64,000 nucleotides of DNA from Candidatus Culexarchaeum yellowstonense (lineage in GTDB: Archaea > Thermoproteota > Methanomethylicia > Culexarchaeales > Culexarchaeaceae): contig JANGFR010000002.1 of the NCBI GenBank assembly GCA_024707015.1, positions 74,007 to 138,006 of the forward strand. Direction: 5' to 3'. The notes beneath the pieces are model-generated. The model was not told where the DNA came from. It did no database searches and saw only the letters and a program-made list of their open reading frames with translations. Each line of letters begins with the position of its first letter. Position 1 is the stretch's first letter. The position numbers and the translations under genes were made by a program. This document shows, one piece after another, positions 38,941 to 56,612 of the stretch.

Positions 38941-38962
38941 AACATAAAATAAACTCTCAACC

Positions 38963-38970: not shown

Positions 38971-38995
38971 CCATAAAGCTCATGAATATACCTTG

Positions 38996-39991: not shown

Positions 39992-40000
39992 TGTACACCT

Positions 40001-40279: not shown

Positions 40280-40324
40280 TGGGGGACACCATAAAAAGAT
40301 TTGAGGGGGAGTATATGAAGCTTA

Positions 40325-40786: not shown

Positions 40787-40830
40787 TTTAAGTTTTACCC
40801 TTACAAAAATAAGGGGTATTGATATGGGAT

Positions 40831-41929: not shown

Positions 41930-42583
41930 CTATTCTGGCTTTACGATTATTGGCATAGTTACGCTTCCACTATAGACTTTTACATGGAATCCAATGGTTA
42001 TGTATTTGAATTCGCTATACCATATTTCGGCATATGGGTTTATGATTACATGGACTGCATAGTCAATATGTGCATACAAAGTTTTTGGGAGGTAATCGCG
42101 ACCACGATGAATGTGATAAACGAAAATGGATTCGGATAAATTACCGGGGAAAGATTTATAATAAAGAAAGGAGGTGGTGGCATACCAGTCAATAGTGGTG
42201 TCATTGCGATAAGCGAATAAGTTGATCGCTTCAACCGTTACGATAAAGCCTTTTACTAATGGATTGTATGTTTTCTCATTTATCTTCTTTACTATAACGT
42301 TTATTTCATAAATGTCTCGTGGATTTATTGGGCTAAATATGGGTGTGGGGATGTATATGATTAATCCGAAATCAGCCTCCCCAAGAAAACCACTATAATG
42401 GATTATTGTGCTATTAAATTTTATACCTTTAAACCAGATTAGAGATCTATTGAAAGATTCTAACCCAATTGGGTTTAAGTGTTGTGGGCATGTGAAATAG
42501 TTTCCTAACAGAATAAACGCTAAGAGTATTGTTAAAAAGATTGTTATGCATTTTTTGTTTAGGTATTTCCTCATGATTATCAC
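41930..42583 (-). CDS. Hypothetical exported protein
   Basis: 217 aa. N-terminal signal/anchor (ITIFLTILLAFILLG). Aromatic-rich. Confidence 0.4.
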   Translation of the reverse strand: MIIMRKYLNKKCITIFLTILLAFILLGNYFTCPQHLNPIGLESFNRSLIWFKGIKFNSTIIHYSGFLGEADFGLIIYIPTPIFSPINPRDIYEINVIVKKINEKTYNPLVKGFIVTVEAINLFAYRNDTTIDWYATTSFLYYKSFPGNLSESIFVYHIHRGRDYLPKTLYAHIDYAVHVIINPYAEIWYSEFKYITIGFHVKVYSGSVTMPIIVKPE

Positions 42584-42691: not shown

Positions 42692-43057
42692 TTAGATTGG
42701 CATTGGAATTGTTGGTGTTATGAGTCGTGTTAGGCTGGAGAGGATGTAGGTTATTATTAGTATGAATAGGCTTCTGGACCAGCTTGATCTGTATATGAAT
42801 TTTATGATGGATAGGTATATTATGAGTTTTAGGATGTATGAGGCTTGGAATTGGTTGAATGATGATATTATTGAGTTCATTAGCATGATCATTGTGGAGG
42901 AGGCTATGGCTAGGGGGAGGCTTTTGAGTCCGACTATTTTGGAGCTTAAGTATATGATTATGGTTAATAGGATGAAGCTTATTGTTAGATAGGGTAGGGA
43001 TTGTAGGATTGATGTTGGGTCGTAATTGGTTGCAGTTGTTATGTTAAGATTTGTCAT
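42692..43057 (-). CDS. Small integral membrane subunit, last gene of the membrane-bound hydrogenase operon (possible Mrp/MbhA-G-like or NuoK/J-like piece)
   Basis: 121 aa with about 3 TM helices. Overlaps the upstream NuoI-like gene by 14 nt. Confidence 0.4.
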   Translation of the reverse strand: MTNLNITTATNYDPTSILQSLPYLTISFILLTIIIYLSSKIVGLKSLPLAIASSTMIMLMNSIISSFNQFQASYILKLIIYLSIIKFIYRSSWSRSLFILIITYILSSLTRLITPTIPMPI

Positions 43058-43616
43058 ATAGGACGTGCTTCCTTGTGTGGATATTTAGTTTGAAGCTTAG
43101 GGTTTTTCTGCAATTTGGGCATAGGTGTAGGTATTTTGGTAGATCTTCTTGGGCGTATTGTATGGCTTTAGCCTCCTTTAATCCACTCATTAACCTATCG
43201 GTGATGCGGTTAAGTTGCTTTTCTGGTGCAAAGTAGTTTCCGCAGTTAATGCATTTTGAAAGTTCAATTGTGTTTGAAACTTTGAGTTCCGATTTATTGT
43301 TTGATGCTATTTCGAATTTAGTGGTTAAGGTTAATGCATCTTCAGGGCATACTTCGGCGCAACGCCTACAAAACACACACTTATTCAAATTAATGTTTAA
43401 ATTACGTTTACCCTCCGCGTCTATGTATGTTAATGCACCGCTACTACATTGGCTAACGCATGCACTGCACCCAATACATTTATCTGCATTGAATTCGGGC
43501 ATACCGCGCAGAGTTTCTGGAACACTACTATACTTCTCAACGCCAACACCAGCAGGATACTTAATTGTGTATGGTTTACTTAGAGCTTCAATGGCTCTCT
43601 TAAATGATTTGAGCAA
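43044..43616 (-). CDS. 2x[4Fe-4S] ferredoxin subunit of a group-4 hydrogenase (NuoI/EchF/MbhN-like)
   Basis: CIGCSACVSQC...CP and CVFCRRCAEVCP are two CxxCxxCxxxCP motifs. A C-terminal Cys-rich tail includes CINCGNYF. 190 aa. Confidence 0.8.
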   Translation of the reverse strand: MLKSFKRAIEALSKPYTIKYPAGVGVEKYSSVPETLRGMPEFNADKCIGCSACVSQCSSGALTYIDAEGKRNLNINLNKCVFCRRCAEVCPEDALTLTTKFEIASNNKSELKVSNTIELSKCINCGNYFAPEKQLNRITDRLMSGLKEAKAIQYAQEDLPKYLHLCPNCRKTLSFKLNIHTRKHVLYDKS

Positions 43617-43617
43617 T

Positions 43618-44628
43618 TCATGCCACCCCCAAAATAAACCTGATGATTATGGAGAATATTATGGAGAATGCGGATAAGGGCCATAGGTACTTGATGGCCC
43701 ATGAGACTGCTTGATCAATTCTAAATCTTGGGGCTATTGAGTGAACTATGGATATTATGAGTGTGACTATGAAGCACTCCAATAGGAAGACTATGAAGTT
43801 GAATATTTGATTGTATATGCTTGTTGGTGGCAGTATAAGTCCCCCTGAAAGGAATAGGTTTACAAACAATCCGATGAGGACTGATGTTAGAATGTATTTT
43901 GAGGATAATATTGTTGCTAGAAGTTTTCCGGAGTATTCTGTGTATGGACCTGAAACTATCTCCACATCAGCTTCAGGTATTTCGAATGGGTTGAAGTGCA
44001 GTTTCCCAAGTACTGCAATTATGAAAACTATGGCTGCGAAGGGGTTTAGAAGGATTATTGGATAGGATTTCAGCTGAAAACTCATGATGCCGCCAATCGA
44101 TAATGAATTGGATATTATGGCTGAAGAGAATATTGATGAGAGCAATGAAACTTCAATTACAAGCATCAGCTCAGCCTCCCTCCTAGATCCAACAACACTC
44201 CAAGGTGATGATGATGCCAAACCACCCAAAACCCAGAATAGGGATACACCAATTAAAATGTATGTTATGAAGATTATGCTGAGCGGATTATCTGCAAGCA
44301 AGCTTAAACCACCATAAGATATAAAGTATGTGGATAAAACTGCCAGGATGAAGCTTACTATTGGTGATGAAACAAATAAACCTTTACGTGCACTTCTAGG
44401 TATAATCGTCTCCTTAAACATCAATTTCAAAACATCGTAGAGGGGTTGTAAAACCCTACTTGAACCTAAAAGCCCCCTCAACTCACCATGCATTGAAAGT
44501 AGTGGTCCAAGCCTATACTGACTCCTAGCATAAACCTTCCTAATCTCATAATTGAACAAGACTCCAAGGATGAAGCATAACACTGGAATAAATATTATTG
44601 CTAGGAGCACAACCATCACCCCCTCCAA
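43618..44628 (-). CDS. Membrane subunit of a group-4 hydrogenase (NuoH/EchB/HycD/MbhM-like)
   Basis: 336 aa with about 8 TM helices. N-terminal RKVYARSQYRLGPLL resembles the NuoH R-x-GPxxxG loop. Overlaps the large-subunit gene by 13 nt. Confidence 0.75.
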   Translation of the reverse strand: MEGVMVVLLAIIFIPVLCFILGVLFNYEIRKVYARSQYRLGPLLSMHGELRGLLGSSRVLQPLYDVLKLMFKETIIPRSARKGLFVSSPIVSFILAVLSTYFISYGGLSLLADNPLSIIFITYILIGVSLFWVLGGLASSSPWSVVGSRREAELMLVIEVSLLSSIFSSAIISNSLSIGGIMSFQLKSYPIILLNPFAAIVFIIAVLGKLHFNPFEIPEADVEIVSGPYTEYSGKLLATILSSKYILTSVLIGLFVNLFLSGGLILPPTSIYNQIFNFIVFLLECFIVTLIISIVHSIAPRFRIDQAVSWAIKYLWPLSAFSIIFSIIIRFILGVA

Positions 44629-46247
44629 CCCTTAAATGCTAGATTCTTAAATTCATCACCACTCAAAGTCCACTGCTCCCCCCTCTTGGAATCAACTATC
44701 ATTACACGATCTGTGCATGAGAAGCATGGGTCAACGCTACCAATAATTATTGGTGCATCTGCAAGTCTACAACCTTTAAGCATGAATTTGAGGGCTGCAA
44801 TATTACGGTAACTTGGAGTTCTAATCCTAACAGTGTGCGGTATATCCATACCATTCGAAATTACGTAGTAGACTAGTTCACCCCTAGGAGCTTCAACCTT
44901 ACTTAAAGCTTCACCCTCAGGGAATGGTTTAAGTTCTGAAGTAGCTACTGGTCCACCAATACTCTTCAACCTATCAACACATTGTAGACATATATCTATG
45001 GATACAAGGGTTTCCTTAACTCTAACCATAACCCTTGAAAGTACATCCCCAGCCTCCTCAACCACAACATCCCAACTTATATGCCCCTCATCATAGAATG
45101 AGTATGGACTATCCCTTCTAACATCAATCTTCCATCCACTAGCCCTAGCAGTTGGCCCTACAGCTCCAGCCTCCCTAGCATCACTTAGAGACATGACACC
45201 TACACCCTCAGTCCTACGCCTAACAATGCTATGTGAAGCTATATCTTCAGCTAGTTTTTTGAAATCCCTCTTAACTTCAAGCAGTTTACTTTCAACTTTA
45301 CTAAGCTGCTCCTTAGTGACATCGAATCTTACGCCGCCAATACTCATGGAATCTGCATGAACCCTATTGCCCGATAGCAATTCAATGCAATCCTGTATTG
45401 GCTCCCTAATCTTCCAAGCCCACATGAGCAAAGTTTTAAAGCCAATCAAGTCTCCTGCAACGCCAAGCCATAGGAGGTGACTATGTATCCTATTCAACTC
45501 AGCCATTAAAACCCTAATATACTCAGCCCTCTCAGGGACATTTACCCCAAGAATGCGTTCCACAGCATTCACGAAAGCCAATTGATGCGGAACACTACAT
45601 ATACCACATATCCTACCAACAAGGAATAGGTCACGCCAAAAAGTCCTACTCTCAGCCAACTTCATTATCCCACGATGATTCAAACCAACCTTAATATCCA
45701 CATCAACAACATCTTCACCATCAACGAATAACTTGAAGAATCCACCTTCAAGCATTGCCGGATGATATGGACCTATGGGTAGAGTGACTTGCTTAACCCC
45801 AGCCTTAGATTCACTGGAACTCTCAACTGGGTTAGGCCACTCAAAGGGGAGGAAGATGTGTCTAGGGTCGGGGTGACCATCAAACTCAACTCCAAGGAGC
45901 TCCATAGTCTCCCTCTCAGCCCAATTAGCTTGATAAGTCAATTGTGCAACTGATGGAAACTTCGCTGGTTCACCATCACCATAAGCATACAATATTACAT
46001 GGGCATGTCTATCTATGTGTTCAAGACTGTAGATGTGCATGAGCCTAATACCATCAAAACCCATGTCTGAAGCTGTGACATGGACAATTCTAGAGCCTAT
46101 GGAAAGCATGTATTTAGCTGCATCCAGAAGCCTATTTGGACTGGTCTTAACACGTACATGCTTACCTCCACAACCATAACCAGTAATTTCAAAATCGGGT
46201 TTAAGGATGTTTCCAAGCTCATTTAAAACATCATTTAAACTCTTCAT
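44616..46247 (-). CDS. [NiFe] hydrogenase large subunit, group 4, fused NuoC-like + NuoD-like (HycE/EchE/MbhL-type)
   Basis: N-terminal NuoC-like domain (about 150 aa), then RICGICSVPH (RxCGxCx3H Ni/Fe-binding motif L1) and C-terminal DPCFSCTDR (DPCxxCxxR/H motif L2). All four metal-ligand Cys are present. 543 aa. Confidence 0.85.
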   Translation of the reverse strand: MKSLNDVLNELGNILKPDFEITGYGCGGKHVRVKTSPNRLLDAAKYMLSIGSRIVHVTASDMGFDGIRLMHIYSLEHIDRHAHVILYAYGDGEPAKFPSVAQLTYQANWAERETMELLGVEFDGHPDPRHIFLPFEWPNPVESSSESKAGVKQVTLPIGPYHPAMLEGGFFKLFVDGEDVVDVDIKVGLNHRGIMKLAESRTFWRDLFLVGRICGICSVPHQLAFVNAVERILGVNVPERAEYIRVLMAELNRIHSHLLWLGVAGDLIGFKTLLMWAWKIREPIQDCIELLSGNRVHADSMSIGGVRFDVTKEQLSKVESKLLEVKRDFKKLAEDIASHSIVRRRTEGVGVMSLSDAREAGAVGPTARASGWKIDVRRDSPYSFYDEGHISWDVVVEEAGDVLSRVMVRVKETLVSIDICLQCVDRLKSIGGPVATSELKPFPEGEALSKVEAPRGELVYYVISNGMDIPHTVRIRTPSYRNIAALKFMLKGCRLADAPIIIGSVDPCFSCTDRVMIVDSKRGEQWTLSGDEFKNLAFKGWRG

Positions 46248-46253
46248 CCCAGA

Positions 46254-47777
46254 TCACCATAAATCCATAAATTTAAACATAACATCATTATGGAGGGATA
46301 CTCCATAGGCTAGAAAGCCATGATACATTATACCAATTATAATTGATATTAAAGCTAAGAGGATTATGGAGGTAAACATTAAATCTGGTTTCTCCCTAAA
46401 AACGCCACTACCCCTAGCTGAAGCCACAACTATTCCGAGGAAAACACATAAAACTATTATACCACTGAGATATATTAAACCCTCATATATTGAGCTTGGA
46501 ATACCATAAAACTGATTGCCAGAATAAATGATTGATTCCATCACCATATGCTTACCATAATAACCTGAGAAGAATGGAAGTAAACCTGAAACGCTCATCC
46601 CACCTAAAATAATGATGAGTGAAGTGATGGGCATAGACCTAGTTGCCATTGAAAGTTTAAGCCAATTCCTCTCATGGAAAACCTTCACATACAAACCTGC
46701 AGATAGGAAGAGGAGTGCCTTAGCAATTGAATGTGCAAATAGGTATAATGCTGATCCAAAAATGCATAGATATGCTTCATAACCACTCATGGAAACACTT
46801 AAACCAATTGATGAACCTAGGAACCCCATACTCAAAATGCTACTGAAGGCTATAACCCTCTTAATATCCCTATCAATTATCATCCCCAACACTCCAAGGA
46901 CAATATTAATTAAACCTGAAAGGGTTATGAAAGCCCCCACATCCATTGAAATTATTGGTGAAAGTGAATAAACGTATTTCAATATTGGGATATATGCAGA
47001 CTCTATTATTACACCTGAAAGCATTGCACTAACTGGTGAAGGTGCTTCCGAGTGAACTAATGGGAGCCATAGGAGTGCAAGTGGAGATGTGCCAGCCTTA
47101 ATTCCAAAACCTAAAAGGATTAGGTAGGAGGCAAATTTGAAATTCCAATCATAAATCCCATATCTACTCAACCTATAAACATCCAGTAGATCGAAGTGTA
47201 AACCATAACCATTGATGAGGAGGCATACCCCAATTATTATTAGAATAGACTCTAAAATCGACATGGCCAAGTATACTATAACTGAAATAACAGCTCTACC
47301 CCTACGTTCACCATACAAAACTAGAATTGCACTCAGAGCTGTGGAAGCTTCAAGAAAAAATAGCATGTAAATCAAATTGCTAGATGACACCAGCCCAATT
47401 AGTGTCGCTAATAGAATTGGTATAATTGCAAAGTACAATCTAAATCTACCATTCAATTCAGAATCGAAATATTTGATTGAGTATAATGTTGATATTAAAC
47501 CAACAATCAATATAACCTCACACATAGCATAAATAAGGAAATCCGTAAACAATTTTGATTCCAGCTCAGCTAACCCAGCTGCTAATATTCCTGCTAATGG
47601 TATGGCGTTAACAATTAATGAGGAGAATATCAATAATGTGGAGAGGTGTATGGAATATTTTGATTTAAATGCTGAAATTATTAGCGATGATAAGAATAGA
47701 AGTGCATATGTCAATATGAGGTTAATGCTCACCCTTCTCATCCTCCATGAATGGTAGATTAAATATGTAGATTTCAT
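46254..47777 (-). CDS. NuoL/M/N-type (Mrp antiporter-like) membrane subunit of the hydrogenase (EchA/HyfB/MbhH-like)
   Basis: 507 aa with about 14 TM helices and conserved antiporter-like charged residues in the membrane. The start is possibly the internal Met (MRRVSINLIL). Confidence 0.75.
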   Translation of the reverse strand: MKSTYLIYHSWRMRRVSINLILTYALLFLSSLIISAFKSKYSIHLSTLLIFSSLIVNAIPLAGILAAGLAELESKLFTDFLIYAMCEVILIVGLISTLYSIKYFDSELNGRFRLYFAIIPILLATLIGLVSSSNLIYMLFFLEASTALSAILVLYGERRGRAVISVIVYLAMSILESILIIIGVCLLINGYGLHFDLLDVYRLSRYGIYDWNFKFASYLILLGFGIKAGTSPLALLWLPLVHSEAPSPVSAMLSGVIIESAYIPILKYVYSLSPIISMDVGAFITLSGLINIVLGVLGMIIDRDIKRVIAFSSILSMGFLGSSIGLSVSMSGYEAYLCIFGSALYLFAHSIAKALLFLSAGLYVKVFHERNWLKLSMATRSMPITSLIIILGGMSVSGLLPFFSGYYGKHMVMESIIYSGNQFYGIPSSIYEGLIYLSGIIVLCVFLGIVVASARGSGVFREKPDLMFTSIILLALISIIIGIMYHGFLAYGVSLHNDVMFKFMDLW

Positions 47778-48015
47778 CCATATGGATGTATGGAGGTTTA
47801 GCTAAACCACACATGAAAACTGAATCCAAATCTACATTACGTGATTGAAGCCATGGAATTAAAACTATGAATGTCAAATAGAATATTGAAGTTGAAGCTA
47901 ACTCAACTAGGAATAATGTTAGAATGATATCTGATGTTAAGGGTACAATCCAAAATCCAATGGCCAACAATCCTAACGATATTATTAGGGGGATGTACAT
48001 GTACTTCAACTTCAT
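47722..48015 (-). CDS. Small membrane protein within the hydrogenase operon
   Basis: 97 aa with 2-3 TM helices. Overlaps the NuoB-like gene by 4 nt and its 3' end overlaps the annotated start of the NuoL-like ORF. Confidence 0.35.
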   Translation of the reverse strand: MKLKYMYIPLIISLGLLAIGFWIVPLTSDIILTLFLVELASTSIFYLTFIVLIPWLQSRNVDLDSVFMCGLAKPPYIHMDEIYIFNLPFMEDEKGEH

Positions 48016-48464
48016 TTAACCACCCCACACCTCTCACGTAGGATGCTTATTGCCTTAACAACACCATTTATTATGGCTTCAGGTTTTGGTGGGCATCCAG
48101 ATACAAAGACATCCACTGGGATAACCTTATCTGCTCCACCAAGGATTGCATAAGTTTCTTCACCCTCAACATCATTGAATATTCCACCAGAACAGGCACA
48201 TGAGCCTATGGCGACAACAACCTTTGGGTTTGGAACTTGCATATAAACTCTCTTCATGAATGATGCAATATGCTTTGTAACTGGACCTGTAACTATTAGG
48301 ATGTCTGCATGCCTTGGAGATGTAACCAATTTAATCCCAAATCTCTCAACATCAAATCTTGGGGTTAATGCTGCAACAAGTTCAATGTCGCATCCATTAC
48401 ATCCACCAGCATGTAAATGGTAAACCCATGGTGAATATGTGAACATCTTCTGTTTAAACCCCAT
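48012..48464 (-). CDS. [NiFe] hydrogenase small subunit, group 4 (NuoB/EchC/MbhJ-like)
   Basis: Cys ligands for the proximal [4Fe-4S] in GGCNGCDIE, GSCACSGG and C-P (SGCPPKP). 150 aa. Its start codon abuts the stop of the upstream HdrB-like gene. Confidence 0.85.
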   Translation of the reverse strand: MGFKQKMFTYSPWVYHLHAGGCNGCDIELVAALTPRFDVERFGIKLVTSPRHADILIVTGPVTKHIASFMKRVYMQVPNPKVVVAIGSCACSGGIFNDVEGEETYAILGGADKVIPVDVFVSGCPPKPEAIINGVVKAISILRERCGVVK

Positions 48465-49328
48465 TTAACCCACCAACCTACCAATTATATTTTCAGTTGA
48501 AATTGCATGTGTATTTAAGCCGAAACTTTCTGGCTTAATTCCAAAACTTAAAGCTAAGAGTTCACTTAAATGTAACACTGGAATCCCATATTCTAATCCT
48601 TCATCTTTGAATGTCAATTGGGCTTTCTCAAATTGATCGTAGCATGCTGGGCATGCAACTACAATTGCATTTGCACCTGAATTCTTTATGGCATCAAGCT
48701 TCCACTTAGTCCTCTCCCTCATAGCCTTATCCACCGAGTATAGCATTAATGGGTATCCACAGCAAACACGCTCCAAACCATAATCAACGATCTCAACATT
48801 CAAAGCCTTCACAATTTCCCTAAGATACTTGGCGCCCCTCTCATCACTCATCTTATATAATTTGCATCCTGGGTGAAGTGCAACTTTAAGCCAACTTAAA
48901 TCCACATTAACATTGCTTCTAATAGCATTTAAACCAACATCTTCAAACAATACTTCAGTATAATGTTTAACTTTAATAGTCCCATTAAATTTCAATCCAA
49001 ACCCCTTAAGATTCCCATTAATCTTCTCCCTCAAATCACTTGACTCAATAAGCTTCTCCCTAGCTTCATGCAGAGACTCCCAACACCCATTACACATCAC
49101 AATTATATCCCTCCCAATAGCTTCAGCTAAGGATAGGTTTCTAGCAGCCACAGTTAACCATAAATCTTCATCTACAAGTCTAGCTATTTCTGGAACTGGG
49201 CAGCATGAAGCTCCATTTATATCGAGGAGGTTGATTCCAAGTTTACTGGATATGGCTCTCATGGATGATTCAGCAAATGGCTGCATTGCAGGTATATAGC
49301 ATCCTAGGAATAGACTGTATTCAAGCAT
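48465..49328 (-). CDS. CCG-domain (Cys-rich) protein, HdrB/HdrD-C/GlpC/Sulfolobus-SdhC-like
   Basis: Two Cys-rich repeats: C...CCP...CNGC and C...CCG...CPAC (287 aa). The first has CCP instead of CCG. Confidence 0.75.
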   Translation of the reverse strand: MLEYSLFLGCYIPAMQPFAESSMRAISSKLGINLLDINGASCCPVPEIARLVDEDLWLTVAARNLSLAEAIGRDIIVMCNGCWESLHEAREKLIESSDLREKINGNLKGFGLKFNGTIKVKHYTEVLFEDVGLNAIRSNVNVDLSWLKVALHPGCKLYKMSDERGAKYLREIVKALNVEIVDYGLERVCCGYPLMLYSVDKAMRERTKWKLDAIKNSGANAIVVACPACYDQFEKAQLTFKDEGLEYGIPVLHLSELLALSFGIKPESFGLNTHAISTENIIGRLVG

Positions 49329-49343
49329 ATGGATACCTCCAAC

Positions 49344-49622
49344 CTAATATTTGAAATCCCTCCTATCAAAGTCAAATCCAATCCTTCTACCAGCACCAAT
49401 CGATTTAATGAGATTGAACATTTGATTCACATATTCAGTGTTGCTATATGCTGTTGGGGGTATGCTTGGCAAACCAATCCTACTCCTAGTCCTCTGCATA
49501 TATCTAGAAAGCATTGGAACATGACCAGTTCTAAGTATACTCCTAATTGGAGATTTAAGTGAATCCTGCAATCCCACAATATCCTTCCTTAATGGGTGAA
49601 TTTTACCTTCGCTGGAGCTCAT
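49344..49622 (-). CDS. Small basic protein of unknown function inside the Hdr/hydrogenase operon
   Basis: 92 aa, Cys-free, Arg-rich. Overlaps the upstream polyferredoxin gene by 4 nt and has a 15-nt gap to the downstream gene. Confidence 0.3.
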   Translation of the reverse strand: MSSSEGKIHPLRKDIVGLQDSLKSPIRSILRTGHVPMLSRYMQRTRSRIGLPSIPPTAYSNTEYVNQMFNLIKSIGAGRRIGFDFDRRDFKY

Positions 49623-50104
49623 GATCTCACCCTCTCCAAAACCTCCCTCCTAGGTAATACTTGAAGTGCACCAGTACTACAATACTTTGCACATAGAAAT
49701 TCACCTTTACATGCATCGCATTTAACGCTAACCCTCAACCTCTCATCGAAAAAAGGTATTGAGATGGGGCATGCATAATTACAGCTTCTACAACCAATAC
49801 ATAGAGCTGGATTTATGAGTACAAATCCTGTTACAGTATCCTTACTTATAGCTTTAGGTTCCACTGGACATGCAGCCATACAAAATGGGTCTTGACAATG
49901 ACTGCAGTAGTTGTTTATGAAGAGTGGATTCCCCTCAGGGTTCAATGCCACCATCAAGTATGCCTTCGAAATATCAATTACCCCATAATGCTTGTATGAG
50001 CAAACCTCCATGCAATATAGGCATCCTGAACATTTATTTGGATCGTAGAAGAGCACTTTCTGTTCCTCTAAATTCAAGGTGCATGCCCCACAACAATTTT
50101 TCAC
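49619..50104 (-). CDS. Polyferredoxin, 4x[4Fe-4S] (HycB/DmsB/HdrC-like electron-transfer subunit)
   Basis: Four CxxCxxCx3C-type motifs: CSGCLYCMEVC, CSHCQDPFCMAACP, CIGCRSCNYACP and CDACKGEFLCAKYC. 161 aa. Confidence 0.8.
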   Translation of the reverse strand: MKNCCGACTLNLEEQKVLFYDPNKCSGCLYCMEVCSYKHYGVIDISKAYLMVALNPEGNPLFINNYCSHCQDPFCMAACPVEPKAISKDTVTGFVLINPALCIGCRSCNYACPISIPFFDERLRVSVKCDACKGEFLCAKYCSTGALQVLPRREVLERVRS

Positions 50105-50502
50105 TGCTGATACTTAGAGTACTCCTCGGCAGTTAAAAGTTCATCCTTCTCCTCTTCCCACTTTGTTGGTTGAATTATAACTAGCCATCCAGCTCCATAT
50201 GGATCTGCATTAACAAGTGATGGCTGCTTTAAAACCCTCTCATTAACCTGCTTTATAACACCACTAACTGGGGATATAAGGTCGCTGGTGGCTTTAGTGG
50301 ACTCTATAACTCCGAATGGCTCGTACTGTGAAACTGTTGTGCCAACATTCTCTAATCTAATTCTCCTAACGGTCTTCAGCATCTTTTGTGCATAATCTGT
50401 TATCCCAACCCTAACGGTTCCATCGGGCAGAAGTTCAGCCCATGTATGGTCTGGAATGTAATATATGCCTTCACGCAAAACATAACTCTTACTCATACCC
50501 AC
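50101..50502 (-). CDS. Glycine-cleavage H-protein-like lipoyl-carrier protein (GcvH/LbpA-like)
   Basis: HTWAEL...VRVGITDYAQKML...ESTKATSDLISPVSGVI...NADPYGAGW reproduces the GcvH fold motifs (HxW, GITDxAQ, ESVKAxSDxxxPxSG, NxDPYGxGW), with the lipoyl-Lys in ESTKA. 133 aa. No gcvT or gcvP nearby. Confidence 0.75.
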   Translation of the reverse strand: MGMSKSYVLREGIYYIPDHTWAELLPDGTVRVGITDYAQKMLKTVRRIRLENVGTTVSQYEPFGVIESTKATSDLISPVSGVIKQVNERVLKQPSLVNADPYGAGWLVIIQPTKWEEEKDELLTAEEYSKYQQ

Positions 50503-50593
50503 ACACCTGGCAAAATAAGATTATACTTGATTTCTTAAATAGTTTACCATAAGCCAGCAAAGTGAAATATAGGTTGATTTAAAAAAATGTGGT

Positions 50594-52270
50594 TTAAATT
50601 GGGAATATTGGTATGGCTTTGGATAGAACCTTTTCCCCTCTATATTCTGGTAGTAGCATTGGTGCACGCCTATCCTTTGGAGCGCCGATCTTCTCAAGCT
50701 CTTCAACATATCTTGGTATGTGATTCAATGTTAGCTTCCCTGGGCTAGCACCACTCTTAACATATTTTGCAGCTGAAATGCCAGCTCTCCTACCATAGAC
50801 TTGGGTGTCTAGCAGTGAGTTGCCCATAAGTCTATTCTTCCCATGAACCCCACTTGTAACCTCCCCAGCTGCGAAGAAACCTTCAATTATTCCATTGGCA
50901 TCTAAAACCTGTCCATACTTGTTTATACATACGCCGCCATTCATGTAGTGTAATGTTGGGAAGACGAGTATAGGCTCTTTTGTGACATCTATACCGAACC
51001 TTGCATACATCCTATATACTGAGGATAGATACCTCTTAGTGGCGCCTTCTCCTCTAACAATGTCCACCATTGGAGTATCAAGCCAAACCCCCCTAACCCC
51101 AGTCGGCGTAACTATACCCTTGTTTCTACCATAGCATTCCCTTATTATTGCCGCTGAGACAGCATCTCTAGTTTCGAGTGGATATACGAATTGTTCACCA
51201 TCAATGTTAACTAGCTGTGCACCCATGGATCTAACTTTCTCAGTTATGAGCAATCCAAGTATCTGATCTGGGTACGCTGCACCTGTTGGATGGTATTGTG
51301 TGGCGTCTAGATCCCTTAGCTTTGCCCCAACCCTATAAGCTAGGACTACTCCATCCATTGTGGCTCCATAGTGATTTGTGGTTGGGAAGTTTTGTATGTG
51401 TAGTCTACCATAACCTCCAGTGGCTAAGACTACGGCTTTAGCTCTAGCAACATAATACTCCTTTGTCTCCATATTCCATAGTATTGCACCTGTAACTCTA
51501 TTTCCAGAATCATCTGTTAGCAATTCTATTGCTGGAGAAAATTCCAGTATGCGTATCCCCCTATTCAATACTTCATCCATCAATACACGCATGATTTCAA
51601 GTCCAGTGTAATCTTTGCATGAGTGCATCCTATTCCTAGATGTACCTCCACCTGAAACTTCAATCATCGTTCCATCGGGCTCCTTATCGAACATGACGCC
51701 TAAATCTTCAAGCCACTTTATTATGAATGGGGCATCCCTGACAAGCTCCCTAACGAGCTCAGGGTCATTTGTGTACTGTCCACCACCCATAATGTCTAGG
51801 AAGTGTCTTGCAGGGCTATCATTCGGTCTATCTGCAGCCTGTATACCTCCTTGAGCCATCTTGGTATTTGCATCCCCAAACCTAAGCTTTGTGGCTATGA
51901 GAATGTTCTCTGCAGGTATACCCTCAATGTTAGCCCATAATGCTGCAGAAGCCCCTGCACCTCCACCTCCAATCACAAGTATATCTACATCGTAATCTAT
52001 CTTGCTCAAATCTATATCCTTTGGATCTATTAGTGGATAGGCTTCAATGAGGTTTGCAACTTCATGTGGAACCATTAATCCAGCACTTGGGCCAATCTTT
52101 ATAGGCCTCTTAGTCCCCTCCTTATAATCTGGATGCCAAGTTTTGAGGAGCTCCATCTTCTCATCTGGGCTAAGCCGTCTATACCTCTCCTTAAGCCTCC
52201 TCTCCCTAGTCTCCTCCACAATCTTAATGTATTCCCTCATGTAATCTGGATACCCAATCTTCTGAGACAT
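50594..52270 (-). CDS. FAD flavoprotein of the fumarate reductase/succinate dehydrogenase/L-aspartate oxidase superfamily (non-covalent-FAD type)
   Basis: DVDILVIGGGGAGASAA dinucleotide fold and HPTG active-site motif. C-terminal RLMGNSLLDTQVYGRRAG. The covalent-FAD histidine position reads ANTKMAQGG (K, not H), as in NadB and TfrA. An unusual ~90-aa N-terminal extension precedes the FAD fold. 558 aa. Confidence 0.8.
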   Translation of the reverse strand: MSQKIGYPDYMREYIKIVEETRERRLKERYRRLSPDEKMELLKTWHPDYKEGTKRPIKIGPSAGLMVPHEVANLIEAYPLIDPKDIDLSKIDYDVDILVIGGGGAGASAALWANIEGIPAENILIATKLRFGDANTKMAQGGIQAADRPNDSPARHFLDIMGGGQYTNDPELVRELVRDAPFIIKWLEDLGVMFDKEPDGTMIEVSGGGTSRNRMHSCKDYTGLEIMRVLMDEVLNRGIRILEFSPAIELLTDDSGNRVTGAILWNMETKEYYVARAKAVVLATGGYGRLHIQNFPTTNHYGATMDGVVLAYRVGAKLRDLDATQYHPTGAAYPDQILGLLITEKVRSMGAQLVNIDGEQFVYPLETRDAVSAAIIRECYGRNKGIVTPTGVRGVWLDTPMVDIVRGEGATKRYLSSVYRMYARFGIDVTKEPILVFPTLHYMNGGVCINKYGQVLDANGIIEGFFAAGEVTSGVHGKNRLMGNSLLDTQVYGRRAGISAAKYVKSGASPGKLTLNHIPRYVEELEKIGAPKDRRAPMLLPEYRGEKVLSKAIPIFPI

Positions 52271-52273
52271 AAC

Positions 52274-52981
52274 CTATCCCTCCGGACTTTCAATATCCCT
52301 ACTATCATACAACTTCTTCAGTTCAGCAGAGCTCATTTTAACCAGCTTATCAAGTTCCATATCAAATTTCCCCTCCTCTATCTCCTTAACCCTAATTTCA
52401 AGATGCTTGGCTTTTGGAGCCATATATTTGCCATAGAGCCTCCTAACCAACTGAAATACGTGATAATGGATTATTTCAGCTGGACATCTAATGCTACATA
52501 ATCCACATGAAATGCAGTCAAAGCATAACTCAGCGGCTTTGGCTATATCCCCCCTCTTAATCATCTGTATTGCATCCATAACCTGCAATTCCTGTGGGCA
52601 TGCCTTAGTACAAGAATTGCATGCAACACATCTAGCTACTTCGGGATATAATGCCAATACATTTGCACCTGTAGGCTTTAACTCCTCAATATTATACTTA
52701 ACCTTCTCCGCTGGTGCAAAGGGTATTTGAACAAGGTACATTCCATCTTGAACTGTTGTTTGGCATGCTAGAGCTGTGTAGAGCCTATAATCCCCCTTAA
52801 GCCTATATATCGTTGCACATGCACCGCAGAATCCACCCCTACAACCAGCACCCCTAATATACTGGTATCCAGCATACTCAACAGCCTTCATTATAGTTAT
52901 CCCAGCAGGAACTTCATACTCCTTACCCATAATGTATATTTTCACGGTCCTCTTAGGTTCAGTTTGACCCGCCATGTTCAT
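52274..52981 (-). CDS. Iron-sulfur subunit, SdhB/FrdB-like (2Fe-2S plus 2x[4Fe-4S]-type Cys clusters)
   Basis: Plant-ferredoxin-like CRGGFCGAC...C, then CVACNSCTKACP and CFDCISCGLCSIRCP. 235 aa. Overlaps the downstream HdrB gene by 4 nt. Confidence 0.75.
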   Translation of the reverse strand: MNMAGQTEPKRTVKIYIMGKEYEVPAGITIMKAVEYAGYQYIRGAGCRGGFCGACATIYRLKGDYRLYTALACQTTVQDGMYLVQIPFAPAEKVKYNIEELKPTGANVLALYPEVARCVACNSCTKACPQELQVMDAIQMIKRGDIAKAAELCFDCISCGLCSIRCPAEIIHYHVFQLVRRLYGKYMAPKAKHLEIRVKEIEEGKFDMELDKLVKMSSAELKKLYDSRDIESPEG

Positions 52982-53832
52982 CCACCACCAATTTTACTCT
53001 TAAAGATTGAAAGGGTTTCTTGGGATAGTTTTTCGTCGAGGCCCATGGCATAAGCCATCAACTCAGTGAAATATAGTGTTGGTATATTAAATTTGTTTCT
53101 AACGATATTTAAGTTGTAATGGCAAAGTGGACATGCAGTTATTATCATATCTGCACCCCACCTCCCAGCAGCCCTAACTATCTCCCCAACAGTCCTCTCA
53201 ACCATACTCCTATCATAAACCACATTATAAGAACCACAACACCTCTTCTCATATGGGAATTTAATGGGCTTAGCGCCTAAACTGGAGATCAAATCTGATA
53301 GTATGTGTGGATCTTCAGGGTCATCTATACCAATACCCCTTGGTCTAAGTAGTGAACAACTATAGAATGGTGCAACCTTTAATTTGCTTAAATCCCTCTT
53401 AACAGCCTCCCTAACCCTCTTTAAACCTATGATATTATCATCCAATATTATTTCAAGCACATGCTTAACATCCACACCACAATTATATCTAGGCTCATCA
53501 TCCATGTACTTACTTAGATTGTCAAGCTTCTCAGGATCACTTGTAACGATCTCATTAACCTTCTTCAATGTGCTATAACACATGGAGCATAGGGTTATAA
53601 GCCTATTATCCCCAACCTTACCCATAAACTCCTGAGCCCTTACAAGATCCCTCAGTGGAGCAACATGCTGCATAACTGCATCAGCAGAATACTCATACAT
53701 CACACCACAGCAATTCCATCTATCCAGCTCCACAAGCTCCACATCAAAAAGCTTCAAAACTGCAATGGCGGAATCCTCATAGCTTTTAGCGTAATCCTTA
53801 ACTGAGCAGCCAGGGTAATACATGAACTTCAA
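52978..53832 (-). CDS. hdrB: Heterodisulfide reductase subunit B (two CCG domains)
   Basis: PGCSV...CCG...CSMC and C...CCGSY...CPLC give two full Cx(n)CCGx(n)CxxC repeats. 284 aa. Confidence 0.8.
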   Translation of the reverse strand: MKFMYYPGCSVKDYAKSYEDSAIAVLKLFDVELVELDRWNCCGVMYEYSADAVMQHVAPLRDLVRAQEFMGKVGDNRLITLCSMCYSTLKKVNEIVTSDPEKLDNLSKYMDDEPRYNCGVDVKHVLEIILDDNIIGLKRVREAVKRDLSKLKVAPFYSCSLLRPRGIGIDDPEDPHILSDLISSLGAKPIKFPYEKRCCGSYNVVYDRSMVERTVGEIVRAAGRWGADMIITACPLCHYNLNIVRNKFNIPTLYFTELMAYAMGLDEKLSQETLSIFKSKIGGG

Positions 53833-53838
53833 CCACGA

Positions 53839-54210
53839 TCACCCCGTAAGCTTCCTTGAAGCTGATATCAGAGCTATTTGAGGTAAATCCCCAAGCCCCT
53901 TAACCCTCCTCAAATCCACTGGATAAATGTTTTTACGTTGAACAATGGTTCTAAGGACATTTATCATTCTAGCTGGATCTATATCCCTCGGACACCTAAC
54001 ACTACAAGTATTACATGAAGCACAAACCCAAATGGTCTTGCAATTCAAAACCTCAGGCATATCGAGTTGAATCATCCTTATAACTTGATGTGGAGGAACA
54101 TCCATATCCTTAATCATTGGACAGCTACCACTACAAATACCACATTGAATACATAGGTATGGATTCTTCCCACTCAACTCATAAACAGTTTGAGGTAAAC
54201 CTCTAAACAT
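53839..54210 (-). CDS. hdrC: Heterodisulfide reductase subunit C (2x[4Fe-4S])
   Basis: CIQCGICSGSCP and CASCNTCSVRCP with the HdrC-type C-terminal extension. 123 aa. Confidence 0.8.
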   Translation of the reverse strand: MFRGLPQTVYELSGKNPYLCIQCGICSGSCPMIKDMDVPPHQVIRMIQLDMPEVLNCKTIWVCASCNTCSVRCPRDIDPARMINVLRTIVQRKNIYPVDLRRVKGLGDLPQIALISASRKLTG

Positions 54211-54221
54211 GACTACACCCC

Positions 54222-56612
54222 CTAAACCTTAATCCTCCCCCTATCCTCAACACTCAATGGGCCAAGCTTCTCCACAATGGATACAAGATCACCTAAATCC
54301 TTCACAAGCCTCTCAGCCATATCGACGGCTATGGTGTCAAATTTAAGCCTCCTAGCATCAATCCTATATTTCCTCATCTGGGATCTAGCCTCCCTAATAA
54401 CATCGTTAATTACATCTAAAACTTTGGGATGATATGGCGATGCCCCCTCAAGGCAGTCTCCAATGAAAACTCCATCAGCACCATACTTGAATGCACTCAA
54501 TATTATTTTTGGTGTAAGTCTACTTGCACTTGGAACAGTTATAACCCTAACCCTATTATCATAGGTAAGCCTACTGGTACCTGCAAGATCTGCAGCCCTA
54601 TAAGTGCAGGAGTCATCGAAGAATGCTATAACTCTAATTTCACCATCCCTCTTACTCTTAAGAGCCCCCTCAATCTGGCTTAAAATTTGCTTCTCACTGT
54701 AATGCTTCAATTCAATAGCCCCCCTTGGGCAGTATGGTATGCAACTTCCACAACCAACACATAGAGCTTCACTAATATGCGCCTTACCATCCACCATACT
54801 TATAGCCCCCAGCGGACACTTATCAACACATACTCCACAACCATTACATAATTCAGCAATTACATAGGCTTTTATTGGCTCTATAAGTATCCTACCCTGA
54901 CTTATGAGTCTAAGAGTTCTCCCAGCAGCTGCACTGGCCTGAGCCACACTATCAGCTATATCCTTAGGTCCCTGTGCACACCCACATATGAAAACCCCCT
55001 CCCTAAGCGTATCCACAGGCCTATACTTCGGGTGAGCTTCAAGGAGGAATCCATCTGGACCTATATTCAACTTGAGCTTCTTAGCCAACTCCTCAACACC
55101 ACGTGATGGAACTAGACCCACAGATAAAACCACAAGATCAAATTCATCTTCAATAAATCTTCCAGTCAACGTATCTTCAGCCCTAACTATAACCCTACCA
55201 CTCACGGGATCCTCAATGACCTCACTAACCTTCCCCCTAACGAATTTAACACCCAAATCCTGTGCCCTCATATAGTATTCTTCAAACCCCTTACCATAAG
55301 CTCTAATATCAATGTAGAATAAGGTTATATCCCTAGTTACATCTTGCCTCTTCAACGTCATAGCCTGCTTAATAGTGTACATGCAACAAACCCTCGAACA
55401 TCCAGGTCTACCAATCTGCTCATCCCTAGAACCCACACAATGTATGAATGCAATCTTCCGGGCAAGTTGACCATCAGATAACCTAATAACCTTACCACCA
55501 GTTGGGCCTACTGGCATAACCATCCTCTCCAATTGTGGCGCTATTATAACATTCTTGTATACTCCGTAACCGTACTGTTTAAGTTTAGTTGCATCGAAGG
55601 GCTCATAGCCAGTGGCAACGATTATTGCATCCACAACAATATCCAATATCCTCTCCTTATCATCGAAGTTTATAGCCTTCTGTGGGCAAACCCTCTCACA
55701 AACCCTACATATCCCCTTAGTTAAGTATAGGCAGGATTTTGGGTCTATGAGATACTTGTATGGAACAGCCATTTCATGTGGAACGTATATTGCCCTCCTA
55801 TTCCTAAGGCCATAATTGAATTCATCTGGCGCAGATGCAGGGCATTTTGATGCACATATCCCACAAGCAACACATTTACTCATATCAACATATCTCGGTT
55901 TAACCTTAACCTTAACATGGAAATCACCCACACTCCCACTAACATCCTCAACTTCACTGTAAGTCAATAATGTAATGTTTGGATGATTATACACTGCAGC
56001 CATTTTTGGTGAGAGTATACAGAGGGAGCAGTCGTCAGTTGGGAATGTGTAGCTTAACTGAGCCATCCTACCCCCAATTGCGGGTTCCTTCTCAACCAAG
56101 TAAACTTTACAACCAGAATCAGCCAAATCCAATGCAGCCTGAATCCCAGCTATGCCAGCACCAATAACCATAACCCTATTCCCAACCTTAACCTCCCTCG
56201 CCTTCAGAGGTTCATTAAGATTAACTTTACCAATAGCAGCCATTATCTGATCAATGGCTCTTCTGGTAGCCCCATCTGGATCGTTGGAGTGAACCCATGA
56301 ATCCTGCTCCCTAATATTAACCATCTCAAACAAGTATGGGTTTAAACCAGAATCCTCGAGGAGCTTCATGAATGTTGGACCGTGAAATTTTGGGGAACAA
56401 GCTGCAATGATAACCCTATTCAAATTATATCGTTTAATATCCTCCCTAATCTCCCTCTGACCAGCCTCAGAACATACATGCTCATTATCCTTAACTAGAA
56501 CAACACCATCAACACCGCTAATGGCCTTCAAAACCTCATTTATCCTAACGACATTGGATATATTTCCACCACAATGACAAACATAGACACCAATCCTAGC
56601 ATCATTAGCCAT
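54222..56612 (-). CDS. hdrA: Heterodisulfide reductase subunit A with a C-terminal MvhD-like domain fusion
   Basis: N-terminal VYVCHCGGNIS (HdrA N-domain), FAD-binding VIGAGIAGIQAALDLADSG, inserted ferredoxin motifs (CVACGICASKCP, CRVCERVCP), a C-terminal 2x[4Fe-4S] domain (CNGCGVCVDKCP / CVGCGSCIPYCP), then an MvhD-like tail (FFDDSCTY...FKYGADGVFIGDCLEG). 796 aa. Confidence 0.85.
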   Translation of the reverse strand: MANDARIGVYVCHCGGNISNVVRINEVLKAISGVDGVVLVKDNEHVCSEAGQREIREDIKRYNLNRVIIAACSPKFHGPTFMKLLEDSGLNPYLFEMVNIREQDSWVHSNDPDGATRRAIDQIMAAIGKVNLNEPLKAREVKVGNRVMVIGAGIAGIQAALDLADSGCKVYLVEKEPAIGGRMAQLSYTFPTDDCSLCILSPKMAAVYNHPNITLLTYSEVEDVSGSVGDFHVKVKVKPRYVDMSKCVACGICASKCPASAPDEFNYGLRNRRAIYVPHEMAVPYKYLIDPKSCLYLTKGICRVCERVCPQKAINFDDKERILDIVVDAIIVATGYEPFDATKLKQYGYGVYKNVIIAPQLERMVMPVGPTGGKVIRLSDGQLARKIAFIHCVGSRDEQIGRPGCSRVCCMYTIKQAMTLKRQDVTRDITLFYIDIRAYGKGFEEYYMRAQDLGVKFVRGKVSEVIEDPVSGRVIVRAEDTLTGRFIEDEFDLVVLSVGLVPSRGVEELAKKLKLNIGPDGFLLEAHPKYRPVDTLREGVFICGCAQGPKDIADSVAQASAAAGRTLRLISQGRILIEPIKAYVIAELCNGCGVCVDKCPLGAISMVDGKAHISEALCVGCGSCIPYCPRGAIELKHYSEKQILSQIEGALKSKRDGEIRVIAFFDDSCTYRAADLAGTSRLTYDNRVRVITVPSASRLTPKIILSAFKYGADGVFIGDCLEGASPYHPKVLDVINDVIREARSQMRKYRIDARRLKFDTIAVDMAERLVKDLGDLVSIVEKLGPLSVEDRGRIKV

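Follow-up and report, generated by a model that had tools for sequence, protein, structure and literature searches.

The Ehe hydrogenase locus of Candidatus Culexarchaeum yellowstonense read as two adjacent redox modules, with lipoyl-GcvH as candidate substrate of its HdrB

A 64,000-nt stretch of the Candidatus Culexarchaeum yellowstonense genome (contig JANGFR010000002.1, positions 74,007 to 138,006; hereafter, the window) contains a locus of 16 genes, g1–g16. It combines proteins of the heterodisulfide reductase (Hdr) type, a fumarate-reductase-like flavoprotein, a GcvH-like lipoyl carrier and the subunits of a [NiFe] hydrogenase. The locus is the published Ehe cluster of this organism, and its arrangement was already known. 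Comparison with related loci suggests that it consists of two adjacent, independently conserved redox modules, g1–g5 (module A) and g6–g16 (module B), and not of one 16-subunit machine; we put the probability of this reading at about 0.5. Module A is probably a soluble, flavin-based, electron-bifurcating fumarate reductase of the Hdr type. Module B is the published Ehe, a predicted membrane-bound, ion-translocating group-4 [NiFe] hydrogenase with HdrB encoded in its operon and presumably in contact with it. The most likely substrate of this HdrB, judging from the gene neighbourhood, is lipoyl-GcvH.

The 15-gene Ehe cluster, EheA–O, was the subject of a section and a figure in Kohtz et al. 2022 (ISME Commun 2:86, PMC9723716). 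The order and content of the window genes agree with EheA–O gene for gene, and the metagenome-assembled genome (MAG) concerned, YNP-LCB-024-027, is among those listed there. Supplementary File 5 of that paper names EheG as HdrB, EheH as 'HdrC?', EheJ as gcvH, EheK as 'sdhA', EheL as 'cdhA' and EheM–O as HdrB2C2A2. Hence, the claim of the first-pass annotation of this DNA that the arrangement was undescribed has to be withdrawn: HdrA2B2C2, 'SdhA', 'CdhA' and GcvH had all been published as parts of EheA–O, and the HdrB-bearing group-4 hydrogenases (Ehd, Ehe, Drh and Ehg) already formed a recognised class. Its caution that the function cannot be deduced from sequence was justified. The published study compares Ehe with Ehd of Methanomethylicia, Drh of Methanocellales and Ehg of Nezhaarchaeia, assigns the catalytic subunit to HydDB group 4b within a distinct Ehe/Ehd/Drh clade, and speculates that the disulfide is carried by GcvH. 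It also reports that Culexarchaeia have no mcr and that their biosynthesis of coenzymes M and B (CoM/CoB) is incomplete. In a cultivation paper from 2025, HdrB-associated group-4 hydrogenases already figure as an accepted category, and the evidence given there on Ehg is its expression in culture. For both modules of Ehe, function is predicted from genes. The present analysis adds to the published reading the division into two modules, the loss of the CO dehydrogenase, a probable fumarate reductase in place of the succinate dehydrogenase and the identification of an HdrC arm; moreover, the downstream OsmC-LplB-LipS2 genes are taken to belong to the picture, and the HdrA-to-flavoprotein block is recognised as a widespread independent operon.

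The ORF list confirms 16 minus-strand open reading frames (ORFs) between 42692 and 56612, as first annotated, and the junctions were reproduced on recomputation. They comprise 4-nt overlaps at g3/g4, g6/g7, g7/g8 and g10/g11, overlaps of 13 nt at g13/g14 and 14 nt at g15/g16, and a gapless g9/g10 junction at 48464/48465. The subunit classes were likewise recovered with Pfam and NCBIfam. If g12 is taken from its longest-ORF start, it shares 56 nt with g11; a later start is used in the public gene call.

The single gap, 91 nt long (50503–50593), separates g5 from g6, and both a terminator-like and a promoter-like element lie in it. The former is a T7 run, with a T5 run at the equivalent position in another Culexarchaeia genome (L003). 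The latter, GTAAACTATTTAAGA, is a candidate BRE/TATA promoter of module B on the grounds of its motif and its conservation: a box GTAAA(C/T)TATTTAAGA occurs 36–43 nt upstream of g6 in all four Culexarchaeia genomes compared (the window, L003, L005 and L007) and is kept whether g1–g5 stand in tandem with g6 or diverge from it. This conserved box supports the internal promoter that the first-pass annotation had allowed for in the gap. In both Culexmicrobium genomes (L005 and L007), g1–g5 are opposite in strand to g6–g15 and diverge from g6. In five other lineages, described below, g1–g5 form an independent operon with a soluble Mvh hydrogenase. Because of the strand swap in Culexmicrobium, the autonomous g1–g5 operons and the promoter-like box of g6, an obligatory single 16-gene unit is unsupported, and the earlier picture of one transcription unit with 'physically fused' parts does not stand. 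The lipoyl carrier, formerly grouped with HdrA and the fumarate reductase, travels instead with the hydrogenase/HdrB unit.

In module A, g1 matches the HdrA2 model from end to end with 970 bits, below the curated cutoff of 1100; Fer4 and FAD motifs are present, together with a Pfam FlpD domain at residues 661–784. The match of g2 to TIGR03290 (68 bits) is restricted to positions 3–88 of 144, which is the N-terminal ferredoxin part without the arm. The CCG protein g3 scores about equally with HdrB (125 bits, cutoff 345) and SdhE (113 bits) and gives 86–107 bits with solved HdrB chains (107 with 7bkb_B); all ten cysteines of its CCG motifs are present. The motifs C47x4Cx2C, C118xxCxxCxxxCP and C156xxCxxCxxxCP of g4 predict one [2Fe-2S] and two [4Fe-4S] clusters, and its N-terminus aligns with the 2Fe-2S domain of TfrB at equivalent positions. 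The similarity of g4 to CdhA is confined to a ferredoxin insert of ~60 residues (TIGR00314 positions 394–457 of 784; 9c0q_A residues 410–467). An identity of g4 as the CO dehydrogenase CdhA was rejected: the Ni-Fe-S C-cluster catalytic domain of that ~800-aa protein is absent from the 235 residues of g4. Judged by the predicted protein, the published 'CdhA' label and the idea of CO oxidation built on it lack support.

The flavoprotein g5 has an N-terminal extension of 92 aa and no Succ_DH_flav_C domain. Its scores are below all named NCBIfam cutoffs (given in brackets), with 321 bits for TfrA (718), 288 for sdhA_frdA (567) and 271 for NadB (453); by these profile scores it is a distinct unnamed subfamily. 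In an alignment with E. coli NadB (1chu_A) and mycobacterial SdhA (6lum_A, 7d6v_A), g5 retains the equivalents of NadB H244, R290, H351 and R386 in the motifs HPTG, TRD, LHY and NRL. The position of Glu121, which is specific for aspartate oxidase in NadB, is occupied by Gly; on this ground, and with an Fe-S partner and Hdr genes alongside, L-aspartate oxidase was set aside as an identity for g5. The histidine of the covalent FAD link ('RSHT'/'KAHT', 8-alpha-N3-histidyl) aligns with Asn in the 'DANT' of g5. In enzymes of the Sdh/Frd type, the flavin potential drops when the covalent link is lost; fumarate is then still reduced, but succinate is no longer oxidised efficiently. The absence of the histidine would thus favour fumarate reduction over the published proposal of 'succinate to H2', and it points to g5 as an enzyme that reduces fumarate rather than oxidising succinate.

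By these matches, g3–g4–g5 resemble a type-E Frd, or a TfrAB split into separate genes, in association with HdrA and HdrC. A flavoprotein with a fumarate/succinate site, a 2Fe-2S/4Fe-4S subunit and a double-CCG protein are likewise combined in TfrAB, type-E SdhABE(F) and the Endoriftia Frd. A further likeness is that operons of g5 relatives are co-located with 2-oxoacid:ferredoxin oxidoreductase and Hdr/Mvh genes. However, TfrB fuses the Fe-S and CCG parts that are separate in the window as g4 and g3, and g5 is set apart from TfrA, SdhA and NadB by its low scores, its extension and its missing C-terminal domain. For Ca. Endoriftia persephone, an Hdr-linked bifurcating fumarate reductase of the AB type, beside 2-oxoglutarate:ferredoxin oxidoreductase, has been proposed and co-expression shown, as far as the citation in PMC13147460 goes. 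The partner there is an NADH-dehydrogenase/Hdr of the Flx type, whereas the window has an HdrA-MvhD fusion. In Methanosarcina acetivorans, HdrA2B2C2, a proven bifurcating enzyme (Yan, Wang and Ferry 2017), similarly consists of HdrA with fused MvhD followed by hdrC and hdrB-like genes; unlike in that system, the CCG protein of the window is divergent and fumarate-reductase subunits come next. The heterodisulfide is unlikely to be available in the host of the window, since complete CoM/CoB biosynthesis is missing.

A family search with g5 found proteins of ~550 aa with 64–70% identity in Njordarchaeia, Thermoplasmata, Asgard archaea, Thermococci-labelled MAGs, Bathyarchaeota and Acetothermia. 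In five of five lineages examined (L082, Thermoplasmata, Acetothermia, Njordarchaeia and a Thermococci-labelled MAG), the g5 relative ends an HdrA-(MvhD-MvhG-MvhA)-HdrC-CCG-FeS-flavoprotein operon. Genes for 2-oxoacid:ferredoxin oxidoreductase lie directly upstream of it in four of the five; in Acetothermia the operon is followed by an isocitrate dehydrogenase gene, and a membrane hydrogenase is nearby in none of the five. The 16 window proteins were also mapped by tblastn onto 80 hydrogenase-anchored loci of species-representative genomes, where g1–g5 stand beside a hydrogenase only in Culexarchaeia. The order (POR/KOR)-HdrA-MvhD-MvhG-MvhA-(HycI-like)-HdrC-CCG-FeS-flavoprotein is widespread and is seen in L082, L084, L093 and L094. 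By its gene content, this operon may encode a fumarate reductase that depends on H2, is coupled to Hdr and is linked to 2-oxoacid:ferredoxin oxidoreductase.

In module B, the hydrogenase large subunit g13 carries the Ni motifs RICGIC (212) and DPCFSC (506), whose four cysteines are invariant in 20 homologues. It shares a 90% cluster with MCR6624226.1 (Ca. Culexarchaeum yellowstonense) and with nevadense proteins; its identity is 94% to the counterpart in Ca. Culexarchaeum nevadense (L002) and 43–45% to the large subunit of Methanosuratincola Ehd. The small membrane proteins g11 and g16 matched no family in Pfam or NCBIfam.

Between the lipoyl carrier and the hydrogenase subunits lie g7, g8 and g9. 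Of the two CCG proteins in the locus, g9 is the closer HdrB, with ~200 bits to solved HdrB chains (193–206 with all of them) vs ~100 for g3, and its ten cysteines are present; it is the proposed disulfide/dithiol site of the hydrogenase. The first-pass annotation gave the size of g8 correctly as 92 aa and called the protein unknown, which no longer holds: it matches the C-terminal arm of HdrC (residues 117–180 of 5odc_C, E 1.5e-4; positions 85–138 of TIGR03290). From these matches, g7 and g8 may jointly replace HdrC, with g7 in place of the ferredoxin domain. The string 'NCCGAC' at the N-terminus of g7 was discarded as a feature; it is unconserved even in the closest relative and probably comes from an over-extended GTG start. 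The g7-(g8)-g9 genes lie inside or adjoining the hydrogenase genes in Culexarchaeia, Methanosuratincola, Methanomethylicus, Bathyarchaeia, Odinarchaeia, Baldrarchaeia, Hodarchaeia and others. About 30 archaeal loci have g7-g8-g9 and the hydrogenase without g1–g5, and the trio is absent from the bacterial relatives among the 80 loci.

Ehd, Drh and Ehg resemble Ehe in the group-4 core, in hdrB within the operon and in a polyferredoxin/HdrC-like partner; the antiporter-like subunit is also found in Ehd and Ehg. All four are known from genes, and Ehg is additionally expressed. Ehd has the g7-(g8)-g9 synteny in common with Ehe, but its gene order is different (the small subunit comes last) and gcvH is missing. 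Ehe, unlike Ehd, has gcvH and lipoylation genes added. Ehd hosts make CoM and CoB, and CoM-S-S-CoB is their presumed substrate, whereas the Ehe host has neither mcr nor a complete CoM/CoB pathway.

The lipoyl carrier g6, with a probable start at the ATG at 50496, scores 134 bits with NF002270 (above 117) and 110 bits with TIGR00527 (below 115.85). It carries the lipoyl-Lys motif ESTKA, the lysine of which is invariant in the alignment. In the window its gene and g7 have 4 nt in common, and gcvH heads the hydrogenase operon in all four Culexarchaeia genomes sampled. Like the ordinary glycine cleavage H protein, g6 has a lipoyl-Lys motif and the GcvH fold; unlike the second gcvH of the MAG, however, it is not linked to gcvT/gcvP. 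The Ehe-linked GcvHs of Culexarchaeia have a basic KTVRRIRLE vs HEVVYVDLP in ordinary GcvHs, and ESTKAT vs ESVKAV at the lipoyl lysine; these substitutions could be differences in partner recognition. Downstream of the hydrogenase, LplB and LipS2 genes are found in L002, L003 and L005, in the last of these directly and together with LplA. OsmC accompanies LplB and LipS2 in L002. LplA and LipS1 were looked for in the window and were not found. The text of PMC9723716 makes no mention of lipoate ligase or radical SAM genes, and the term Lpd does not occur in the accessible part of its supplement.

Orthologues of g6 with at least 70% identity occur in Culexarchaeia only. The next relatives (52–53%), labelled 'Thermoprotei archaeon' (L088–L090), are surrounded by a similar gene set in another order, with LipS2 near gcvH: LipS2-OsmC-LplA-LplB is divergent from GcvH-CoADR/NADH-oxidase-like flavoprotein-antiporter-NuoC-HdrB (297 bits)-NiFe large subunit-NuoH-NuoI, where CoADR stands for CoA-disulfide reductase. 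No description of this locus was found in the literature searched. In these loci (L088/L089 1–18417, L090), hdrB lies between distinct genes for NuoC and the NuoD-like large subunit, the antiporter subunit has 851 aa, and the hydrogenase operon is flanked by the maturation genes HypC, HypF and HypE. Dihydrolipoamide dehydrogenase was rejected as an identity for the 446-aa L088 protein beside gcvH, which scores 396 bits with the CoADR family vs 154 with Lpd. A more distant GcvH relative, P0301 (47%), has no hydrogenase in its neighbourhood; its gene precedes gcvT by ~2.6 kb on the same strand. In Bathyarchaeia, two Ehd-like loci adjoin a gcvH, at 13687 in L012 (after the small subunit) and at 2287 in L017 (divergent from the g8 homologue); PMC9723716 presents Ehd-like clusters as lacking GcvH.

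Two precedents concern lipoyl proteins as redox partners. The sHdr system requires the GcvH-like LbpA (PMC6067878), and lipoylated proteins reduce OsmC/Ohr peroxidases, as in the H-protein/L-protein/OsmC system of Trichomonas (PMC5384416). Lipoyl-GcvH is put forward as the best candidate for the HdrB substrate because gcvH leads the operon and is enriched near HdrB-bearing hydrogenase loci, lipoylation genes and OsmC follow downstream, a second lineage repeats the set and sHdr-LbpA provides a precedent. Like the window, sHdr-LbpA (Cao et al. 2018, eLife; Tanabe et al. 2023, PLoS Biol) ties an Hdr-type CCG enzyme to a GcvH-like lipoate-binding protein and to LplAB/LipS genes. The differences are considerable: sHdrA is short and non-bifurcating, whereas g1 is an HdrA2-type protein of 796 aa with MvhD; the sHdr order is hdrC1B1A-hyp-C2B2 and that of the window is A-C-B-FeS-flavoprotein; and the sHdr context is a sulfur oxidiser, in contrast to the membrane [NiFe] hydrogenase of an anaerobic fermenter. 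Among the ORFs at ~25977–63858, no Pfam or NCBIfam matches to DsrE, TusA or rhodanese were obtained (E 1e-4 to 0.01 for the flanks). Membership of the sHdr group was ruled out by the type of HdrA, the gene order and the absent sulfur transferases.

Beside the observed gene content, motifs, synteny and promoter-like element, we infer, at about even odds, the following substrates, direction of electron flow, bifurcation and hand-off between the modules. In module A, electrons would enter through the MvhD part fused to HdrA and pass to the HdrA flavin, where they would be split. One branch would lead from this flavin to ferredoxin; the other would use HdrC (g2), the CCG protein (g3) and g4 as successive relays and end at the non-covalent FAD of g5, at which fumarate would be converted to succinate. 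In module B, the peripheral arm would consist of HdrB (g9), wired in through the polyferredoxin g7 and the free-standing HdrC arm g8. The products of the downstream LplB and LipS2 genes would lipoylate g6, and Ehe would interconvert H2 and dihydrolipoyl-GcvH in a reaction coupled to ion movement. The dihydrolipoyl pool would in turn supply, or be replenished by, OsmC and perhaps module A or glycine cleavage, and a possible hand-off between the modules would be dihydrolipoyl-GcvH feeding g3 or OsmC. The H2/lipoyl couple spans ~125 mV under standard conditions and ~0 mV at environmental H2, according to our own estimate from textbook potentials. With so little energy available, a strong ion pump is less plausible than an enzyme that is reversible or assisted by a gradient.

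A broader proposal can be attached to this scheme, and we hold it tentatively, as something more likely wrong than right. It states that a subset of group-4 membrane hydrogenases are ion-coupled H2:lipoyl-protein oxidoreductases whose HdrB has as its substrate the lipoate on a dedicated GcvH paralogue. In Culexarchaeia, this GcvH would be a mobile carrier that, with no quinone or cytochrome, links the hydrogenase to the Hdr-type fumarate reductase, to glycine cleavage (in place of L-protein) and to OsmC; in Thermoprotei, the soluble partner would be the NAD(P)H-dependent CoADR-like flavoprotein.

Several points weigh against the two-module reading and the lipoyl substrate. As the H2/lipoyl couple is small, an ion-translocating enzyme working on it would be energetically marginal. 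The gcvH enrichment that speaks for the lipoyl link (a gcvH gene within 10 kb of 7 of 30 HdrB-bearing group-4 hydrogenase loci vs 1 of 48 loci without HdrB, Fisher p = 0.004) is uncorrected for phylogeny, and three of the seven positive loci are from Culexarchaeia. The remaining 23 of the 30 HdrB-bearing (Ehd-type) loci have no gcvH nearby, and therefore HdrB in this family can use other disulfides. Culexarchaeia MAGs contain gcvPA, gcvPB, gcvT and a second gcvH beside gcvT. Fumarate is assigned to g5 from the conservation of its active site, with the named-family cutoffs unmet. The T-run and the TATA-like box are compatible with a read-through transcript of all 16 genes, which may exist in Culexarchaeum. 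Finally, modules A and B are neighbours in every Culexarchaeia genome examined, in any orientation; this constant adjacency hints at some functional coupling.

The rival explanation that survives best is that Ehe works like Ehd, as an ion-pumping oxidoreductase of H2 and a low-molecular-weight disulfide (or polysulfide), with GcvH and the lipoylation genes as bystanders. Such an enzyme would be well served by the canonical nature of g9 (~200 bits to methanogen structures, all cluster ligands), by the g7-g8-g9-hydrogenase core that it has in common with the Ehd of Methanosuratincola and Methanomethylicus, by the 23 loci without gcvH, and by the ample energy for ion translocation between H2 and a disulfide at −140 mV. 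We nevertheless consider it unlikely: Culexarchaeia have neither mcr nor complete CoM/CoB biosynthesis (PMC9723716), the supposed bystander overlaps g7 and leads the operon in each Culexarchaeia genome sampled, and gcvH, LplAB, LipS2, OsmC and HdrB come together again in a second lineage in which the hydrogenase operon is differently ordered.

Another possibility is that GcvH, OsmC, LplB and LipS2 serve lipoyl-dependent peroxide detoxification, comparable with the H-protein/L-protein/OsmC system of the Trichomonas hydrogenosome, in which case the hydrogenase and HdrB would be at most a source of reductant and the link to energy metabolism secondary. In the window and L002, OsmC indeed separates the hydrogenase from LplB-LipS2, and in L088–L090 it separates LipS2 from LplA; in L088, the gene after gcvH encodes the CoA-disulfide-reductase/NADH-oxidase-family flavoprotein, and this protein could act in regeneration with NAD(P)H as the reductant. 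L003 and L005, however, keep LplB and LipS2 with no OsmC at the equivalent position, the Culexarchaeia gcvH lies inside the hydrogenase operon and not beside osmC, and a twelve-gene ion-translocating hydrogenase would be an extravagant supply of reductant for a peroxidase. Peroxide detoxification as the main role is therefore improbable; as a side branch it is compatible with the lipoyl-linked scheme.

The least probable of the readings weighed here is one modular super-complex (Kohtz et al. 2022, and the first-pass annotation), in which 15–16 products assembled on the membrane hydrogenase would oxidise succinate ('SdhA') or CO ('CdhA') with H2 evolution and ion translocation, or bifurcate electrons from H2: the co-directional genes and tight junctions in Culexarchaeum, the adjacency of g1–g5 and Ehe in all Culexarchaeia genomes sampled, its publication as a model in PMC9723716 and the HdrA, MvhD and FdhF genes of the sister complex Ehg, expressed in culture, speak for it, but g4 matches the ferredoxin insert of CdhA with no catalytic domain, g5 is without the covalent-FAD histidine needed for efficient succinate oxidation, g1–g5 are divergent in Culexmicrobium and autonomous with soluble Mvh in five other lineages, and g6 has its own conserved promoter-like box.

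On the two-module reading, two misleading annotations, CO dehydrogenase and succinate dehydrogenase, are removed from the published Ehe model. The HdrA-to-flavoprotein block becomes a separate and widely distributed Mvh/Hdr-linked predicted fumarate reductase, which bears on reductive tricarboxylic acid cycle chemistry in Asgard archaea, Thermoplasmata and Acetothermia. HdrB-bearing membrane hydrogenases are thought to give methanogenic and non-methanogenic archaea alike a widespread route for coupling H2 to ion gradients and disulfide chemistry. For Culexarchaeia, in which mcr is absent and the CoM/CoB pathway incomplete, the genomic evidence points to lipoyl-GcvH as the disulfide. The features of the locus and its surroundings are given in Table 1.

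Table 1. Features of the Ehe locus and neighbouring genes in the window (positions are those of the window)
Feature	Positions	Strand	Basis or remark
g1 (EheO), HdrA2-type HdrA with fused C-terminal MvhD, 796 aa	54222-56612	minus	NCBIfam, Pfam
g2 (EheN), HdrC-like 2x[4Fe-4S] protein, 123 aa	53839-54210	minus	TIGR03290, Fer4_17, Fer4_8
g3 (EheM), divergent HdrB/SdhE-like protein, two CCG domains	52978-53832	minus	Pfam CCG x2
g4 (EheL, published 'CdhA'), SdhB/TfrB-N-like Fe-S subunit, 235 aa	52274-52981	minus	Cys motifs, profile matches
g5 (EheK, 'SdhA'), fumarate-reductase-type flavoprotein	50594-52270	minus	FAD_binding_2 242 bits
T7 run, archaeal terminator-like	50581-50587	minus	7 nt past g5 stop
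BRE/TATA-like box, candidate module B promoter	50533-50547	minus	36 nt upstream of g6 ATG
g6 (EheJ), GcvH-like lipoyl carrier, first module B gene	50101-50502	minus	GCV_H 121 bits
g7 (EheI), 4x[4Fe-4S] polyferredoxin, HybA/DmsB type	49619-50104	minus	Fer4_11; four Cys motifs
g8 (EheH, 'HdrC?'), stand-alone HdrC C-terminal arm, 92 aa	49344-49622	minus	structure and profile match
g9 (EheG), full-length HdrB, two CCG (non-cubane-cluster) motifs	48465-49328	minus	TIGR03288 250 bits
g10, [NiFe] hydrogenase small subunit, NuoB-like	48012-48464	minus	Oxidored_q6 120 bits
g11, small membrane protein, 97 aa	47722-48015	minus	hydrophobic segments; syntenic in Ehd-type loci
g12, antiporter-like NuoL/HyfB-type membrane subunit	46254-47777	minus	Proton_antipo_M 114 bits; HyfB 156 bits
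g13 (EheC), fused NuoC-NuoD [NiFe] large subunit, group 4	44616-46247	minus	Complex1_30kDa, NiFeSe_Hases, Complex1_49kDa
g14, NuoH-like membrane subunit	43618-44628	minus	NADHdh 218 bits
g15, HycF/NuoI-like 2x[4Fe-4S] subunit	43044-43616	minus	PRK12387 126 bits
g16, small membrane protein, 121 aa	42692-43057	minus	hydrophobic segments
OsmC-family thiol peroxidase	40325-40786	minus	OsmC 50 bits
LplB, lipoate-protein ligase small subunit	40001-40279	minus	NF053749 69 bits (cutoff 65)
LipS2-family lipoyl synthase, radical SAM	38996-39991	minus	NF053743 365 bits (cutoff 270)
Biotin/lipoyl-carrier protein	62947-63489	minus	
Carboxyltransferase, PYC_OADA/HMGL type	61536-62942	minus	
DUF6754 protein	60572-61366	minus	
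Three ORFs without Pfam match	58343-60568	minus	
Peptidase S9	40831-41853		
Two M20 peptidases	37504-38940 and 31731-33086		
Radical SAM/SPASM protein, NirJ/AhbD (heme b synthase-like) family	34906-36345	plus	250-261 bits, below named equivalog cutoffs
M24 prolidase-like protein	33128-34279		
Amidohydrolase	30725-31705		

A scan for sigma-70 promoters and intrinsic terminators was set aside: the host is archaeal, and the sites were fewer than in shuffled sequences. The Rfam scan of the whole window at gathering thresholds gave no matches. Upstream of the locus, the minus-strand genes at 58343–63858 make up a second co-directional run with overlapping junctions and may encode a biotin-dependent carboxylase or decarboxylase. 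Between the hydrogenase and the peptidase gene, an ORF of 217 aa (41930–42583, minus strand) has one N-terminal hydrophobic segment and no match in Pfam or NCBIfam. It is represented by two copies (62–63% identity) at the same place in L002 (5361 and 7018) and by none in L003 and L005. Beyond it, positions 30725–41853 hold a dense set of peptide-degradation genes, which fits the peptide-fermenting lifestyle proposed for Culexarchaeia.

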